The notes under the pieces: model-generated | The model's input: only the letters and a program-made list of their open reading frames with translations | Told to the model about the DNA's origin: nothing | Databases searched by the model: none | Part shown: positions 12,155 through 57,181 of the stretch, in pieces | How the letters are laid out: every line of letters starts with the position of its first letter | Numbering within the stretch: the stretch's first letter is position 1 | Program-made: the position numbers and the translations under genes | Source: Escherichia phage JY01 | Sequence record: OR995200.1 | DNA: 64,000 nt | Direction: 5' to 3' (one strand)

Positions 12155-14419
12155 TCATAATTTACAGGATGAACAATCTTCAGCTTTTGGAGTTTCTATT
12201 TCATAATCATCAGTACCAGAACCATCACGGGTATTATGATAATAGAAATTTTTTCCGCCAAAATACCAAAAATACAAAAGGTCATCAATCATTATTGACA
12301 TTGGAACCTTTCCTTTTGGAAAAATCTGTGGGTCATAGTATGTATTCGCCGAAGCTGATTGACAAACCCATTTCAGCATAATAGCTACCTGCGTGAGATA
12401 AGGTTTATTACCTTTCTTAGCTAATTTCCATGTATAATCATAGAGGTCTATGTTATGCTCAATATTGGGCACGACTTGATTAAAGGAGCCCTCTTTTGAT
12501 TCTTTAACAGAGACTGGTCCACGTGGAGGCTCGATACCGTTTGTACTGTTAGAAACTTGGGAAGATGACTCACATGGCATAAGTGCTGATAATGTGCTAT
12601 TACGGATGCCAAAGAGCTTAAGGTCTTCCCGCAGCGACGACCAGTCACAAACGTATTTTGGAGCTGCGATTTGGTCAATCTTTTTATTGTACCAGTCGAT
12701 AGGTAATTCGCCTCGAGACCAACGAGTGTCTGAATAATATTCGCAAGGTCCTTTTTCTTTGGCGAGCTTAATGGATGCTTTAATGAGTCCATACTGTAAT
12801 CTCTCAAATAGTTCATGTGTTAAATCGTTAGCATCTTCATAAGAAGCAAAGTTACTTGCCAGCCAAGCTGCATAGTTGGTAACACCTACACCGAGGTTAC
12901 GACGCTTTTTAGCTTTTTCTGCTTCAGGAACTGGATATCCTTGGTAATCCAAAAGATTATCAAGAGCACGAACTTGGACTTCTGCCAATTCATTAATTTT
13001 ATCTTGGTCTTGCCAGTCAAAATTATCCAGTACGAATGCAGAGAGAGTACACAATCCAATTTCAGCATCGGGGCTATTCACATCATTTGTTGGAATAGCA
13101 ATTTCACAGCACAAGTTACTCTGACGAATAGGTGCTTTTTCACGAATAAACGGAGTATAGTTATTCGTATTATCAATGAACTGTACATAAATCCTTGCTG
13201 TTCCTGAACGTTCAGTCATGAGCAATTCAAATAGTTCACGGGCTTTAATACGTTTTTTACGAATATTAGGGTCTTTTTCTGCTGCTTCGTATAATTCACG
13301 GAAACGGTCTTGGTCTTTAAAATAAGAATAATAAAGCTCGCCACCCATTTCATGCGGACTGAACAAAGTAATGTAATCGTTCTTTCCGAATCGTTCCATC
13401 ATCAAATCATTCAGCTGAACACCATAATCCATATGACGAATACGGTTTTCTTCAACACCTTTGTTATTTTTTAGAACGAGAAGATTTTCAACTTCCAAAT
13501 GCCAAATAGGATAATAAGCAGTAGCAGCGCCGCCACGAATTCCACCCTGTGAGCATGATTTAACAGCAGTCTGAAAATGTTTCCAAAAAGGAATAACACC
13601 AGTATGGCGGACTTCACCCATGCCAATCTTAGAACCTTCGGCACGAATCATACCAACGTTAATACCAATTCCAGCGCGTTTAGAGATATATTCAACAATT
13701 GAAGCTGAAGCCTTATTAATAGACTTCAGCGAATCACCTGCCTCAATAACAACACATGAACTAAACTGTCGAGTCGGAGTACGACAACCAGCCATAATAG
13801 GAGTTGGTAATGAAATCTGTCGAGTAGATACTGCTTCATAAAAACGAATAACATGTTTTAATCTATCAACAGGTTCATCTTGATGCAGTGCCATTCCAAT
13901 AGTCATAAATGCAAACTGCGGAGTTTCATAAATTTGACCAGTGGTTTTATCTTTAACTAGATATTTTTCTTTTAATTGCATCGCACCGGAATAAGTAAAT
14001 TCCATATCCCGCTCGTGCTTAATTTTTGATTCTAAAAATGTAATTTCTTCTGCTGAATATTTTGACAATAATTCAGGGTCATATTTACCTTCATTTACAC
14101 AGTAAGAAATATGGTCAATAAATGAACGTGGTTCATACTGCCCATAAACATGCTTACGAAGAGCAAACATTAAACAGCGTGCAGCTACATATTGATAATC
14201 AGGTTCTTCAACCGAAATAGAATTCGCAGCGGCCTTAATGACAATAGTCTGAATATCATCAGTTGTCATTCCATCACGGAGATAAGATTTAATATTTTCA
14301 TATAATTCATAAGGATCTACTGATGTTCCTTCAGCTGCCCAAGATAAAACTTTAATAATTTTTTGTGGGTCAAAGCTCTGAGAAACACCACTACTTTTGA
14401 TAACATTAATTAATTGCAT
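12155..14419 (-). CDS. nrdA: ribonucleotide reductase large subunit
   Basis: 754 aa, same length as T4 NrdA; class I RNR catalytic subunit. Confidence 0.95.
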   Translation of the reverse strand: MQLINVIKSSGVSQSFDPQKIIKVLSWAAEGTSVDPYELYENIKSYLRDGMTTDDIQTIVIKAAANSISVEEPDYQYVAARCLMFALRKHVYGQYEPRSFIDHISYCVNEGKYDPELLSKYSAEEITFLESKIKHERDMEFTYSGAMQLKEKYLVKDKTTGQIYETPQFAFMTIGMALHQDEPVDRLKHVIRFYEAVSTRQISLPTPIMAGCRTPTRQFSSCVVIEAGDSLKSINKASASIVEYISKRAGIGINVGMIRAEGSKIGMGEVRHTGVIPFWKHFQTAVKSCSQGGIRGGAATAYYPIWHLEVENLLVLKNNKGVEENRIRHMDYGVQLNDLMMERFGKNDYITLFSPHEMGGELYYSYFKDQDRFRELYEAAEKDPNIRKKRIKARELFELLMTERSGTARIYVQFIDNTNNYTPFIREKAPIRQSNLCCEIAIPTNDVNSPDAEIGLCTLSAFVLDNFDWQDQDKINELAEVQVRALDNLLDYQGYPVPEAEKAKKRRNLGVGVTNYAAWLASNFASYEDANDLTHELFERLQYGLIKASIKLAKEKGPCEYYSDTRWSRGELPIDWYNKKIDQIAAPKYVCDWSSLREDLKLFGIRNSTLSALMPCESSSQVSNSTNGIEPPRGPVSVKESKEGSFNQVVPNIEHNIDLYDYTWKLAKKGNKPYLTQVAIMLKWVCQSASANTYYDPQIFPKGKVPMSIMIDDLLYFWYFGGKNFYYHNTRDGSGTDDYEIETPKAEDCSSCKL

Positions 14420-52815: not shown

Positions 52816-53418
52816 TTATAGATTAAATCCTTCAAAATCAAGAGTATAGATAGTGTATGTTGAATACTTTTTATACTCATATCTATCTGCAATTCTAAAT
52901 ACACTTCCAGCTGGTATCATTACTTCTTGTTCATCTGAAACTAATTCCATATTACGATAACGATGGCTATCCGGAAACTTAAAGTTTGGATTGTATTCTT
53001 TACAACGTAGAGCTTTTATAGCATACTCCTGGAAATTGAATACCATAGGAGCTTTGAATTCAAAAATAACCTGTGTGTTATACTCTAAACCGGAAGCAAA
53101 ATGTAGAGCTATATTTTTATCATATGAAGCTGATACGACTTTATCAAATGTAATAATATCAATTCCTTGATTTAACACCTGCTTAGTCTCAATTGGAACA
53201 CCTCTCCAAAGAGGTTTATCGTTTGGAACCAAACGAGATTTAATTATTTCATTTAACCAAGTATGGTCATCTGGTTTGTTGGTAATACAATGAATTAAAA
53301 GTTCAATTTCAGATAAATTAAACCCTTCAGAAAGTAATTCTTCACGAATAGAAGCACGCACCGATGCATCCATTGATTTTATTTTAAAATCTTTTAGTTG
53401 CATTACTGAGTATTTCAT
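52816..53418 (-). CDS. modA: ADP-ribosyltransferase ModA
   Basis: 200 aa; R-S-ExE ART motifs (LWRG..., ...SASY..., SDEQEVMIP); paired with modB. Confidence 0.7.
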   Translation of the reverse strand: MKYSVMQLKDFKIKSMDASVRASIREELLSEGFNLSEIELLIHCITNKPDDHTWLNEIIKSRLVPNDKPLWRGVPIETKQVLNQGIDIITFDKVVSASYDKNIALHFASGLEYNTQVIFEFKAPMVFNFQEYAIKALRCKEYNPNFKFPDSHRYRNMELVSDEQEVMIPAGSVFRIADRYEYKKYSTYTIYTLDFEGFNL

Positions 53419-54038
53419 TCAACTACCTCAATATCATAAACTTTAAATGTTCCAAATGAATCGTGTAATTTTTCTTTTGAAATAGAAGTTATTTTATACT
53501 TTCCAATTGGAATCATCCATTCTTGTTCACGCACAATCATCATTAAGTTATCAGTTCTTTCTGAATCTAACCCGTCAGTATCTTCATACGTGTACTTAAA
53601 CTCAGTATTAGGAGAAGAAAGTATAATATCGCTGATATGGTCAGAATAATTAAAAGCTTTATCAGTTTTTAAGCGAAAAATTATTTCAGTGAAATACTCA
53701 AAATAAGAAAAACCACATGCTGTGTGCAAACTAGTAGTAAATGAATCTACCCTGTTCGTTGAAAACACTTCTCCAACTTGTAAATCTTTAATAAGTTCTT
53801 TTGTCGATTTTGATATACCACGATATAATTGATAAGGCGATTTAGTTAAATGCTTTTTAATGATTTTATTCAATTGCCGATGAAGAGCTTCATTCTTTTT
53901 GGCTTCCATACATTGCCAAAGAACAGACTGCTCAAAGTCAGTAAATTTTTCACAGACTTTTTTATACATATCATATTGAAAATCAACGCTTTCAGCTTTT
54001 ATAGATAACTGTTCAACATCTGCAAGATTAATAATCAT
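53415..54038 (-). CDS. modB: ADP-ribosyltransferase ModB
   Basis: 207 aa; R-S-ExE motifs (LYRGIS, FSTNRV, REQEWMIP). Confidence 0.7.
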   Translation of the reverse strand: MIINLADVEQLSIKAESVDFQYDMYKKVCEKFTDFEQSVLWQCMEAKKNEALHRQLNKIIKKHLTKSPYQLYRGISKSTKELIKDLQVGEVFSTNRVDSFTTSLHTACGFSYFEYFTEIIFRLKTDKAFNYSDHISDIILSSPNTEFKYTYEDTDGLDSERTDNLMMIVREQEWMIPIGKYKITSISKEKLHDSFGTFKVYDIEVVE

Positions 54039-54105
54039 GATAGCCTCCGTATACTTCAGAAGCTATCATATCATCGTTAGAAAGGAAAGTAAACAACTTT
54101 TTGAA

Positions 54106-54296: not shown

Positions 54297-54767
54297 CTAG
54301 CGATAAAAACCAAAGTAACGATTAGCTTCAATAATCTTTCTTTCTTCTTCGGACATTCTCCAGCGTAGTCCAACATCAAAATGAGCCCAGACCATCTTAA
54401 CAAATGCATTTATATCTTTAATATCTTCAATAATGAATGTTTTACTTTTAGAAGGTTGACTCGCTAATTTAACTTTATCGTCTTCAAACATGTCAAAAAG
54501 ACCATATTCATGAGCTCTTTTATAGCCTTTAATAGTTAAAGCTTCAGAAGAAGAAAACGGTGAATCAGTATTCTGCAAAATATCTTCAGTATGCTTTATA
54601 ATTAGAATAACATTTTCTGGATATTTTCTTTCTTTTATATCTTTAATTAAAATATCCGGATTTTCTGCTAAAGGAATAATTAATGAGCACTTTTTATCAA
54701 GTGTATTTACTGATTTACCTTCTTTGGACATAAATTCTATTGAATAATGTTTTGCTACTTCAATCAT
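54297..54767 (-). CDS. hypothetical protein
   Basis: 156-aa ORF. Confidence 0.45.
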
Positions 54768-54920: not shown

Positions 54921-55124
54921 TCATGATTTATCACCATAGATGTCTCTCATCAATTTAAGCGCTGAGCGTTCTAATTTCTTTTCTTTCTCAGCACTAATCA
55001 TTGATTTCATCCATTCTTCTGACTCGTTCTGCATTTCTTTATTTGCTTGTTCAACCCAACCATCATCAATATACATTGAGTTTGGTCTATTGAACCATTC
55101 AAGCATTTTCTTTAGGACTTTCAT
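54921..55124 (-). CDS. hypothetical protein
   Basis: 67-aa ORF. Confidence 0.4.
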
Positions 55125-55605
55125 TCATTTTACCTAAAACAATAGTAGGAGCATCGTCAAATTTATGAATTTTTAGCAAATTTGGAGTTAATTTATTCCA
55201 TAAAGAAGTAATAAAATATGATAGCGCAATTTCTTCCGCAATTATGAATTTATTTCCCTTATCTCCCTTATCTATTTTCCAGTCATGTACTGAATCATAT
55301 GAATAGAAGGACAACGGTTTATTGTTATAAAATGCTTCACCAGCATCAATATAGTTAGATTTAGTAAATGCTTGAATTGACGTAAATGGAGAATTTTGTA
55401 CAGTTTCAATAATTCCGATCTTTTTAAGTTTTATTTCAACATCTTCTGGAACTGGCATTGAAATAAAATCTTCTACTAGATACATGCTATTGTCATATCT
55501 TTTGTCAATCATTACTGCTACAGTAATTGGAACATCCTTGACAAACACCGTACTAATACTATTGATAAACATTTCAAACAAAATTGCTTCCATAATTTTC
55601 CTCAA
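55099..55605 (-). CDS. hypothetical protein
   Basis: 168-aa ORF. Confidence 0.45.
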
Positions 55606-55940
55606 TCACAGGATGTAGATGAACAACTAGAATCACAAGAACTTCCACATGAATCGCCCGTCCATACATGAACAGGAACATTAGTATCATATGAATCAGA
55701 ACTAGACTGTGTATTCTGTGTGTTAGATGATGTAGGTACTGACCAGCGCCAAGGATTTTTATAATATTCTTGGGCTTCTTCATAAGTCATAGTAACTTCT
55801 TCAACTGTTCCATCTCCCATATAAACATACTCAACTACAGTTAAAGGAAGGTAGTCATTTGAAATAGGAACTACACCTTCTCCCGGAGTTGTAGAGAAAA
55901 AATCTGTAAAGAAATTTTTAAACCAATTAAAGATAAACAT
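55602..55940 (-). CDS. hypothetical protein with Cys/Ser-rich C-terminal tail
   Basis: 112 aa ending ...[20 protein letters not shown]. Confidence 0.45.
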
Positions 55941-56146
55941 TACAAAAAGCCTCTTTTGAATTCGACTTGCTTCTCACCATAATCATACCTAATCTCTGCA
56001 TTAAATTCAACAGAACCATCTGCGTACATCATAAATGAATGCACAACAACTTCTGTAGACCATGGCTGCAGTTCATATTTCTTCATTACATGTCGTGAAA
56101 TGATAATATCTAAATCTTCATTTGGTTTAATCCAACGATTTAACAT
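55940..56146 (-). CDS. hypothetical protein
   Basis: 68-aa ORF downstream of an early promoter module at 56171-56202. Confidence 0.45.
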   Translation of the reverse strand: MLNRWIKPNEDLDIIISRHVMKKYELQPWSTEVVVHSFMMYADGSVEFNAEIRYDYGEKQVEFKRGFL

Positions 56147-56170: not shown

Positions 56171-56202
56171 CTATTATACCATACTCATTTTGATATGTAA
56201 AC
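56171..56202 (-). promoter_or_regulatory. T4-type early promoter module
   Basis: GTTTAC at 56197-56202 with a TATAAT-type -10. Confidence 0.5.
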
Positions 56203-56212
56203 CGGTAAAATG

Positions 56213-56236
56213 AAAAAAGGAACCCCGAAGGATTCC
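56213..56236 (-). terminator. intrinsic terminator after soc
   Basis: Hairpin GGAAUCC-UUCG-GGGUUCC followed by UUUUUU. Confidence 0.6.
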
Positions 56237-56244
56237 TTAAATTA

Positions 56245-56481
56245 TTAACCACCTATTTCTGTAGGTGTAAACATCGCAGCATTCTTAGTTTTCCAGTCAG
56301 CTGCATCAGAAACTACAGTAGAATATGCCGCCTTTTCAGAAGGAAAGGTCTGATAATGAGAATCTGCAATACGATGCTCGTTAGAATAGATTTCAAATGG
56401 AACAGAAACTTCCATACCTTTAACTTCTTTGCCTTCACCTGCTGGATGAGTAAAGGTCTTGATGTTAACGAAACCACCCAT
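56245..56481 (-). CDS. soc: small outer capsid protein Soc (divergent from T4)
   Basis: 78 aa; conserved Soc motifs VNIKTF and HYQTFPSEKAAYSTV; hairpin plus U-tract terminator downstream. Confidence 0.8.
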   Translation of the reverse strand: MGGFVNIKTFTHPAGEGKEVKGMEVSVPFEIYSNEHRIADSHYQTFPSEKAAYSTVVSDAADWKTKNAAMFTPTEIGG

Positions 56482-56662
56482 AATAAACTCCTTTATTGTT
56501 TAATTACAGGTGTATTTATAACTTATAATTTAGCGGCTTTCCAGAGTTGTTCAATAATCTCTTGGTCTATTTCTTTAGTTATTTCATTACGTAATAAAGC
56601 AGTAAGGGCTTTCGCCCTTTTCTTATTCAACTTTTTGAGTTGACGTTTATTTAAACGAGACA

Positions 56663-57181
56663 TTAATAACCTCGGTCTTGACGTGCGAAATTTTCAGCAT
56701 TTTTCAGGTAATAAAGTTTAAAGATTTCTTCTGCTGTAAGACCAAGACCTTGGAACATATTCAGAACGAAATGGAGAATATCAATCATTTCAAATTTAAT
56801 TTCCAGTTGGTCTTGTGGAGACAAATCAGTAATCAGAGTTTCACGACGTTCACCATGCTGCGACTTCCAAGGTTTCCATACAGCAGATGCATCTTTTTCA
56901 CCATTGCTCATACCACCAAGAGAAGTCAGAAGTTCGCGGAATTCATCATCAATATAATCTTTCTGATTACGCATCCAATCAACAACTTCACCTGCAGTAG
57001 CCAAATCATCAGGATGACGGTTATATTCAGGTTTATCTTTAGCTAAACGAACCTGTAAAGATTTCTGCATATCAAGCATAACTTGCAGCGGGTCTTTTTC
57101 ATCACCGAGAATATCCCAATATTCATTTTGAGCTTTATCAGCGCCTTCAATCAGTTGTGAACATTCGTTAAAGTAAGCCAT
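56663..57181 (-). CDS. 56: dCTP pyrophosphatase (MazG-like)
   Basis: 172 aa from MAYFNECSQ; track ORF has a 31-codon hydrophobic extension that is probably not translated. Confidence 0.8.
   Translation of the reverse strand: MAYFNECSQLIEGADKAQNEYWDILGDEKDPLQVMLDMQKSLQVRLAKDKPEYNRHPDDLATAGEVVDWMRNQKDYIDDEFRELLTSLGGMSNGEKDASAVWKPWKSQHGERRETLITDLSPQDQLEIKFEMIDILHFVLNMFQGLGLTAEEIFKLYYLKNAENFARQDRGY

Follow-up and report, generated by a model that had tools for sequence, protein, structure and literature searches.

A conserved Ser/Cys-rich C-terminal tail in Mrh.1, a small protein of T4-like phages

Many early genes of phage T4, mrh.1 among them, are without a function after sixty years of work. 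The Mrh.1 protein ends in a short segment made largely of Ser and Cys, a kind of terminus with parallels in several better described systems. The metallochaperones SlyD and HypB and the metallothioneins carry segments dense in His and Cys, with CxC, CxxC or CC clusters. The C-terminal tails of ribonucleotide reductases (RNRs) shuttle reducing equivalents, and the disordered, acidic, Ser-rich C-termini of T4 gp32 (its A-domain) and T7 gp2.5 serve protein-protein contacts. Here, mrh.1 is described in a 64,000-nucleotide stretch of Escherichia phage JY01 (OR995200.1), called the window throughout. The gene is a known one; the description given here is at the level of motifs and covers the terminal Cys-Asp dyads, the doubling of the tail cysteines in one lineage and the coupling to the adjacent gene mrh.2.

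Identity of mrh.1 and make-up of its tail

The open reading frame (ORF) lies on the minus strand at 55602-55940, where the initial annotation of the window had rightly placed a protein of 112 amino acids (aa), and consists of 112 codons from ATG to a TGA stop at 55602-55604. Sequence comparison makes it nearly certain that this is the ortholog of the T4 early gene mrh.1, already catalogued without an assigned function. The product scores 101.4 bits with Pfam DUF7206 (PF23836), whose cutoff is 25.6, in a match of residues 3-112 to the entire profile (positions 1-107 of 107), and is assigned to phrog_2031 in PHROG (E = 3.6e-34); both families are annotated as being of unknown function. A tblastn search with Mrh.1 returned 501 phage records in which the gene is called mrh.1 wherever it is named, as in T4T, AR1 and UFV-AREG1. 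Phage BECP11 (Tequatrovirus sf23) encodes a protein 100% identical to the one in the window, and 3.5 kb of DNA around the gene are 99.9% identical to phage ECML-363. T4 Mrh.1 itself (UniProt P20706) is ~95% identical, with W-T-G versus W-A-G as the only change in the tail.

Gene order points the same way. In T4T the order is dam-56-segF-soc-mrh.2-mrh.1-mrh-srh-modA.4-modA.3-modA.2-modB-modA, and the window agrees with it from soc to modA. The gene had been described as lying in a variable interval between modB and soc; its position between modB (53415-54038) and soc (56245-56481) stands, whereas the interval keeps the T4 gene order within Tequatrovirus and differs only between genera. Besides the score above threshold, the protein shares with the DUF7206/T4 Mrh.1 family its place downstream of mrh.2 and the motif S-C-D-S...C-D-COOH (S101-C102-D103-S104 and C111-D112), the last being a feature defined in the present analysis. 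In the searched literature, no paper mentions mrh.1, DUF7206, P20706, T4p027 or phrog_2031 in its main text, and around Mrh/Srh only work on Mrh itself turned up. The PADLOC models yielded no family matching Mrh.1 at E <= 1.

The tail comprises residues 93-112 (55605..55664, minus strand) and is predicted to be disordered. Its sequence had been quoted exactly in the initial annotation, which counted seven cysteines in 20 residues; the last 20 residues in fact hold four Cys (98, 102, 106 and 111), eight Ser, three Asp, two Gly, two Thr and one Trp. The cysteines are spaced C-x3-C-x3-C-x4-C, and the protein has no others. Under the composition of the window's own ORFs (Cys 1.26%, Ser 7.0%), the probability of at least four Cys in 18 residues is 6.6e-5 and that of at least 12 Cys plus Ser in 18 is 1.1e-9. 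The ORFs of at least 100 aa, 72 in number, yield 15,986 segments of 20 residues; only two of these segments contain at least 12 Cys plus Ser, both of them in mrh.1, and only two contain at least four Cys.

Tandem Repeats Finder detected no repeat in the tail DNA, whose serines are encoded by TCT, TCA, TCC and AGT. In the relatives each of the six Ser codons occurs in the tail, with synonymous turnover between them, and the Cys codons alternate between TGT and TGC. An origin of the tail in a DNA repeat or in slippage is excluded by this codon usage together with the absence of a repeat. Because of these features, the composition statistics and the conservation described below, the tail is attributed neither to chance nor to a repeat. 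The BLAST low-complexity filter ends every match at residue 93, and the tail therefore had to be read directly.

Conservation of the tail across the family

Relatives were collected from three sources: a word-indexed search of 5.8 billion proteins, which gave 11; 1.84 billion cluster representatives searched in full with a HMMER profile, which gave 27 at E <= 1e-3; and IMG/VR, which gave 14 loci. They were placed in alignments of 8 (A1), 34 (A2), 28 (A3) and 23 (A6) sequences. All of them occur in T4-like contexts with soc, the dCTPase gene 56, Dda helicase, a Mod ADP-ribosyltransferase or a DexA-like exonuclease, and their hosts are all Enterobacterales (Escherichia, Shigella, Yersinia, Salmonella, Citrobacter, Klebsiella, Enterobacter, Edwardsiella, Kosakonia, Serratia and Cronobacter). 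Mrh.1, a small and by its sequence probably cytoplasmic protein, is confined to T4-like phages of Enterobacterales.

The initial annotation would have been refuted had the tail been missing or frameshifted in all related phages. The opposite was found: each of the 37 full-length members carries the Ser-rich acidic tail in the correct frame. In the 34-, 28- and 23-sequence alignments the consensus is [SG]-[SD]-Y-x(0,2)-D-S-[GS]-x(0,4)-S-C-D-S-[GS]-x(2,5)-[SG]-C-D-COOH, always at the extreme C-terminus and never containing a basic residue. Cys111 is invariant, and conservation reaches at least 90% at S101, C102, D103, S104 and D112, against a mean column identity of only 27-28% for the family. 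The closing dyad (TGT GAT in the window, 55605..55610) is Cys-Asp in 36 of the 37 members and Cys-Asn in one. The pair of Cys-Asp dyads near the end of a disordered Ser-rich tether is the most conserved polar feature of the family. A profile of 42 residues covering only the tail was also run against the 5.8 billion proteins for occurrences of the motif on other domains; it produced 2264 candidates, none at E <= 0.01, and is uninformative on this point.

Among the full-length members, the tail holds exactly two cysteines in every phage outside Tequatrovirus and four in Tequatrovirus, and almost all members have no cysteine elsewhere in the protein. The two family-wide cysteines, corresponding to C102 and C111, are separated by 5-10 residues of Ser/Gly filler. 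The 8-sequence alignment (A1) paired C106, rather than C102 (TGT, 55635..55637), with the internal conserved Cys. C102 is preferred because the larger alignments (A2, A6) support it and because the codon register GGA-AGY-(TCT)-TGY-GAT-TCN is common to the window and the RB69-like loci L009-L015. Alignments and codons thereby show C98 and C106 as Tequatrovirus additions to a two-Cys family tail. The position of C98 (55647..55649) is taken in other genera by the Gly/Ser of the D-S-G motif, and C106 (55623..55625) falls within the Ser/Gly spacer between the family-wide cysteines. Both are kept in all Tequatrovirus lineages sampled (T4, the T2-like SV76, EO1, Sf24 and IMG/VR contigs) with only synonymous TGT/TGC changes, which indicates selection on the thiols.

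The gene or junction downstream of mrh.1 varies among genera (mrh, srh, a Mod ADP-ribosyltransferase or other ORFs), and the terminal Cys-Asp is kept throughout. Its persistence therefore cannot be put down to an overlapping ribosome-binding site of the next gene. Taken together, the sequence comparisons show that the tail is maintained by selection at the protein level. Damaged copies occur sporadically: P0005, P0006 (141 aa), P0018 and L008:2095-2181 are frameshifted or truncated and lack the tail. These represent either sequencing errors or natural loss, in keeping with dispensability of the gene. P0006 runs into a +1 frame that matches a 69-aa ORF of the window at 55574-55783.

Possible roles of the tail

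The best inference for the function of the tail, and a tentative one, is that its thiolates and carboxylates chelate a metal ion. Metal binding is plausible from the sequence, and the computed data would fit a redox-active dithiol tail or a docking motif as well. The initial annotation had proposed a metal-binding tail as opposed to a structural zinc finger. The second half of that statement agrees with what was found: there are no CxxC knuckles, the Cys spacing varies between 5 and 10 residues, and the model confidence (predicted local distance difference test, pLDDT) of the tail is 45-51. The first half stands in part. The tail is conserved, is not a finger and has thiols that are apparently selected; it does not have the Cys density of a metallothionein, with two family-wide cysteines, no His and more than half Ser.

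In this proposal the Ser/Gly-rich, net-acidic tail would be a flexible tether, and the thiolates with their adjacent carboxylates would be the working groups. The chelated ion would be a soft or borderline metal such as Zn2+, Fe2+ (or Fe-S) or Cu+. Since two thiols per chain do not suffice for a full site, the ancestral two-Cys form would need dimerisation, or a partner supplying ligands or a metal centre; candidate partners would be the co-translated Mrh.2, with its invariant His36, or a host metalloprotein. The four-Cys tail of Tequatrovirus could make a metal site unaided. The protein would be made early from an mrh.2-mrh.1-mrh-srh host-takeover operon and would not be needed on laboratory E. 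coli K-12. That Tequatrovirus has retained its additional cysteines is the strongest single argument for the thiols as the functional groups.

A more specific version of metal ligation can be drawn and is quite improbable. Here Mrh.1 would act as a tethered thiol-carboxylate 'warhead': the N-terminal amphipathic helix, similar in form to that of the adjacent Srh, would position it at the membrane or at a host complex, and the free C-terminus (S-C-D...C-D-COOH) would enter the active site and ligate the catalytic metal of a host heat-shock or proteostasis metalloprotein, in the manner of a cysteine switch or a captopril-like inhibitor, with Mrh.2 as cofactor. FtsH, a membrane Zn-protease that degrades sigma-32, would be an example of such a target. 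If true, phages would encode metalloenzyme inhibitors of a new class, and three T4 genes standing side by side would cease to be orphans.

Several observations weigh against chelation. No curated metal-binding family was matched in the Pfam and NCBIfam searches, and neither the profile search nor Foldseek found a relative in the PDB. The tail has no His, only two cysteines are family-wide, and most of the remainder is Ser, a poor metal ligand. Chelation leaves the conserved upstream Tyr, Ser and Asp of Y-D-S-G unexplained, and the variable Cys spacing would suit a disulfide loop or two short copies of a docking motif equally well. Frameshifted copies of mrh.1 occur naturally on occasion (P0006, L008), and in HIDEN-SEQ 31 of 31 TA sites of mrh.1 were disrupted, making the gene non-essential on K-12 (bioRxiv 10.1101/2025.11.20.689424 supplement). 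The Mrh.1 protein was also undetected in a T4 time-course proteome (PMC9697503 supplement). This last point is sufficiently explained by the tryptic peptides of the protein, which are 8, 53, 4 and 47 residues long.

Other published phenotypes of the gene come from screens of T4. In CRISPRi-ART, T4 mrh.1 was classed as 'Semi-Fit' (score 0.79, p = 0.069), one of five T4 genes of purely unknown function in that class, and mrh.2, mrh and srh were 'Not Fit' (PMC11879866 supplement). HIDEN-SEQ recorded no depletion of mrh.1 in the one defence-challenge comparison shown (bioRxiv 10.1101/2025.11.20.689424 supplement). The supplements of a transposon paper (PMC12676376) contain nothing on mrh.1.

The tail could alternatively be a redox-active dithiol, by analogy with the class Ia RNR tail. 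The conserved Cys pair would switch between its reduced and its disulfide state or enter mixed disulfides, acting as substrate, decoy or relay for TrxA/Grx or for the phage proteins NrdC/NrdH. A spacing of 5-10 residues in Ser/Gly filler would suit a loop closable by a disulfide, and the disorder predicted by AlphaFold2 fits as well. Apart from mrh.1, the only long ORF of the window whose C-terminal end is acidic and contains Ser and Cys is the phage's own NrdA (12155-14419, minus strand, 754 aa); it terminates in AEDCSSCKL-COOH (TPKAEDCSSCKL), which is disordered and acidic and contains Ser and a Cys pair. The likeness is compositional only, as the RNR ends in C-x-x-C-K-L, which is basic and hydrophobic, whereas Mrh.1 ends in C-D. 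Moreover, such a pair needs two cysteines, so that the two further ones retained in Tequatrovirus are not obviously explained, and the present data indicate no link to a thiol oxidoreductase. On balance this alternative seems rather unlikely.

A low probability is also given to a docking motif, in which the disordered acidic tail, especially its free S-C-D-COOH, would fit a pocket of Mrh.2, Mrh/Srh or a factor of the host's sigma-32/proteostasis circuit, at which the adjacent genes are aimed, with the cysteines as determinants of shape and hydrogen bonding. The motif stands at the very C-terminus in 37 of 37 members, is predicted to be disordered, and includes conserved residues that are not metal ligands (Y-D-S-G and S-x-D-S). 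A potential partner gene, mrh.2, is conserved with a start/stop overlap; the host-takeover genes mrh, srh, modA and modB are nearby; and an N-terminal W-L-K-x-[WL]-F is common to Mrh.1 and Srh (hhalign P = 3.5e-4, probability 37%). However, docking does not account for the confinement of the protein's only cysteines to the tail, for the two-fold variation in spacer length, or for the gain and retention of two cysteines in Tequatrovirus.

It is highly unlikely that Mrh.1 is a precursor resembling those of ribosomally synthesized and post-translationally modified peptides (RiPPs), with an N-terminal leader and a C-terminal core in which an enzyme of the host or the phage would introduce thioethers, azolines or a thiolactone. 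RiPP precursors usually have a conserved N-terminal region followed by a core rich in Cys and Ser, and the T4-type tail weakly matches the FxLD lanthipeptide precursor TIGR04363 (14.5 bits, E = 0.026). This sole NCBIfam match is, however, far under the curated cutoff of 30 bits, and the tail of non-T4 type gives none. By annotation and Pfam, no recognisable maturase (LanB/C/M, YcaO or radical SAM) stands directly beside mrh.1 in at least 10 loci, in which several adjacent ORFs have neither a Pfam domain nor an annotation; the neighbours identified there are mrh.2, mrh, srh, soc, Mod ADP-ribosyltransferase, Dda, the DexA-like protein and dCTPase. RiPP cores are usually hypervariable, whereas the Mrh.1 tail is the family's most conserved polar segment, and precursors do not typically contain a folded core or run to 112-140 aa.

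Least credible of all is a functionless low-complexity end, whether a Ser-rich tail made by slippage or drifting in composition, or an artefact of annotation or read-through. In its favour, the tail is of low complexity and masked by BLAST (matches end at residue 93), the gene is non-essential, and frameshifted copies stand in a few genomes. Against it, the DNA has no repeat, the Ser codons are mixed with synonymous turnover, the Cys/Asp positions are invariant down to ~27% identity in a motif always in frame and always terminal, and the full-length Pfam match takes in the tail, so that the conservation data effectively refute it.

Architecture, neighbourhood and comparison with known systems

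Upstream of the tail, the protein falls into four parts, for which the main AlphaFold2 model was built from the 28-sequence alignment (a run with 8 sequences gave a pLDDT of 52.8). Residues 1-15 (55896..55940, minus strand) form an amphipathic segment with the consensus M-I-x-W-L-K-x-L-F, conserved K8 and F11, and a predicted helix at 3-14. Its hydrophobic moment of 0.44-0.63 (mean hydrophobicity 0.14-0.48) is comparable with that of reference peptides for membrane-targeting helices of the MinD/FtsA type, and the segment is neither long nor hydrophobic enough to cross a membrane. A P-G-E-G-V-V-P-I motif follows at residues 19-26 (55863..55886), with P19 and P25 at least 90% conserved. The predicted folded core, residues 34-61 (55758..55841), consists of a beta-hairpin (E-Y-V-Y-M-G-D-G-T-x-E-E-V; strands 34-40 and 46-52) and a helix (53-61), modelled with pLDDT 79-85; Y40, G42, G44 and E47 are invariant in alignment A2. 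Residues 62-92 (55665..55757) are a low-complexity Ser/Thr/Asn/Gln linker (pLDDT 39-59, alignment A2), in place of which other genera have a basic helix-like L-K-x-R-L-x-x-R-R and a hydrophobic patch, D-T-T-P-I-V-V-A-A-A-V-S-S. The tail itself has no secondary structure in the model, consistent with disorder.

A variant of 164 aa is found in Shigella phage Sf24 (L022:456-950) and phage 235Ecol030PP (P0003). It carries an insertion of ~52 residues (MEEIIRQPEKAGNVGAGALPLNSKKLKEHLDSRR…IDTAPIITATAVSS) between DTNV and WTGDSC that is homologous to the middle module of RB69-like members, and it keeps the four-Cys tail of T4 type. Judging by sequence, this variant would be either a recombinational mosaic or the ancestral form, the module having later been deleted in T4.

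Structural comparison gave no usable match, the best Foldseek hit of the 28-sequence model in the PDB having E = 1.7. The family profile found no credible relative there; its sole match, a weak one to the phage major capsid protein 6ojn_A (residues 220-297, VFQNKDTGNVIPISATDI...EAYVYMTVGLV; E = 0.006), involves the N-terminal Mrh.1 motifs including E-Y-V-Y-M-G-D-G and was judged to be probably chance. A transmembrane protein, or a secreted one with a periplasmic disulfide, was considered and rejected from the sequence. The N-terminal hydrophobic run, broken by Lys and Asp, is only ~9 residues long in most members, and the internal patch, which T4 lacks, measures ~12 residues.

Immediately upstream on the same strand lies mrh.2 (55940..56146; 68 aa, phrog_1873, unknown function), whose TAA stop overlaps the ATG of mrh.1 as TAATG. 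The overlapping pair recurs in L009-L016 and L018, and an alignment of Mrh.2 contains invariant W5, K7, P8 and H36. The pairing is not universal: in Muldoon-like phages the ORFs upstream of mrh.1 are unrelated to Mrh.2. A PADLOC match of Mrh.2 to BrxC (E = 0.0066 over 40 residues) was disregarded as stray. Directly upstream of mrh.2 is a match to a sigma-70-like promoter, TTTACA-17-TATAAT with a TG extension (56173..56201, minus strand; 11 of 12 positions), the strongest in the 5-kb region, and a terminator-like hairpin after soc (56217..56238, minus strand) parts that gene from the mrh.2-mrh.1 operon. At the other end, the Shine-Dalgarno sequence GAGGA of mrh (55599..55603, minus strand; ATG at 55593, as in the BECP11 annotation of the mrh start) overlaps the mrh.1 stop. 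This arrangement is consistent with mrh.1 being the second gene of an early operon after the promoter upstream of mrh.2. In T4, mrh.1 RNA falls in the 'early' class (PMC9697503 supplement).

Further observations concern the neighbouring genes. The N-termini of Srh (54921-55124, minus strand) and Mrh.1 have in common an amphipathic motif, W-L-K-x-[WL]-F-x-x-P, the hhalign match cited above (P = 3.5e-4, probability 37%) extending over 13 columns. Srh is a postulated sigma-32 decoy. In the metagenomic phage L018 the two N-termini read MKILSWLKGWFDRPS (Srh, L018:628-822) and MIKWLKGLFESSE (Mrh.1, L018:1067-1501), and the DUF7206 member P0026 begins MKMNPLPWIKSWFETKP, resembling the Srh-like ORF of L016. 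On this resemblance, the motif may be a shared targeting or binding module of neighbouring early proteins. Another pair, modA.3 (54297-54767) and mrh (55099-55593), both on the minus strand, match Pfam T4_MRH (PF24070) and PHROG 1234 (E = 6e-38 and 3e-36, respectively) about equally strongly and are by these matches full-length paralogs ~800 bases apart. The RB69-like loci L009-L015 have only the modA.3-type copy, with srh directly after mrh.1.

The window differs from T4 in lacking the homing endonuclease gene segF between gene 56 (dCTPase) and soc (56481-56663; compared with L001:1202-1876). In its place stands a 46-aa ORF (56523-56663, minus strand; MSRLNKRQLKKLNKKRAKALTALL...) that is hypothetical in BECP11 and also present in L014. 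A hairpin with a stem of 14 bp at the start of modB (54036-54070, minus strand; TATGATAGCTTCTG-AAGTATA-CGGAGGCTATCATG) ends exactly at the ATG and holds a GGAGG Shine-Dalgarno sequence, and could occlude translation initiation on longer transcripts. A promoter-like TTTACT-17-TATGAT with TG (54093-54065) overlaps the 5' arm of this hairpin. GenBank records such as those of vB_EcoM-UFV09, KMB42, T4_ev151 and Klebsiella phage Potts1 (L024:2570-2746) label modA.2, modA.3 or modA.4 as 'molybdenum ABC transporter, periplasmic molybdenum-binding protein', which is a name-transfer error from E. coli modA.

If the Mrh.1 tail chelates a metal, exchanges disulfides or plugs a host enzyme, it would represent a new small-protein mechanism in the takeover of the host by phage; if it does none of these, mrh.1 stays an ordinary accessory gene. 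Its closest counterpart is T4 Mrh.1, the same gene in the same place between mrh.2 and mrh and without substantive difference. Like the tails of the metallochaperones SlyD and HypB and the metallothioneins, its C-terminus is an unstructured segment rich in potential ligands (Cys and Asp). It differs from them in having no His, two family-wide cysteines (four in T4) at x3-x10 spacing and more than 50% Ser, and by its cysteine density and clustering it falls outside the metallothionein-like class. A zinc finger or ribbon would have two CxxC/CxxH knuckles in a folded mini-domain, whereas the Mrh.1 tail is devoid of CxxC and disordered in the model, which places it outside that class too.

The large subunit of class Ia RNR, represented here by the phage NrdA, resembles Mrh.1 in its flexible, acidic, Ser-containing C-terminus with a Cys pair. 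It is, however, an enzyme of 754 aa with a C-x2-C arrangement and a Lys-Leu end in place of Cys-Asp; there is no homology, and the analogy is one of kind only. A Pfam search detected no RNR domain in Mrh.1, which is thus not a member of that family. RiPP cores such as those of the FxLD lanthipeptides (TIGR04363) share a Ser/Cys-rich C-terminal stretch with it, a weak match driven by composition. In contrast to RiPP precursors, Mrh.1 scores below the cutoff, conserves its would-be 'core', is much longer and has a folded domain. With C-termini of the gp32 and gp2.5 type the likeness is again of kind only, since those tails are without the conserved cysteines and without the Y-D-S-G...S-C-D...C-D pattern that sets the Mrh.1 tail apart.

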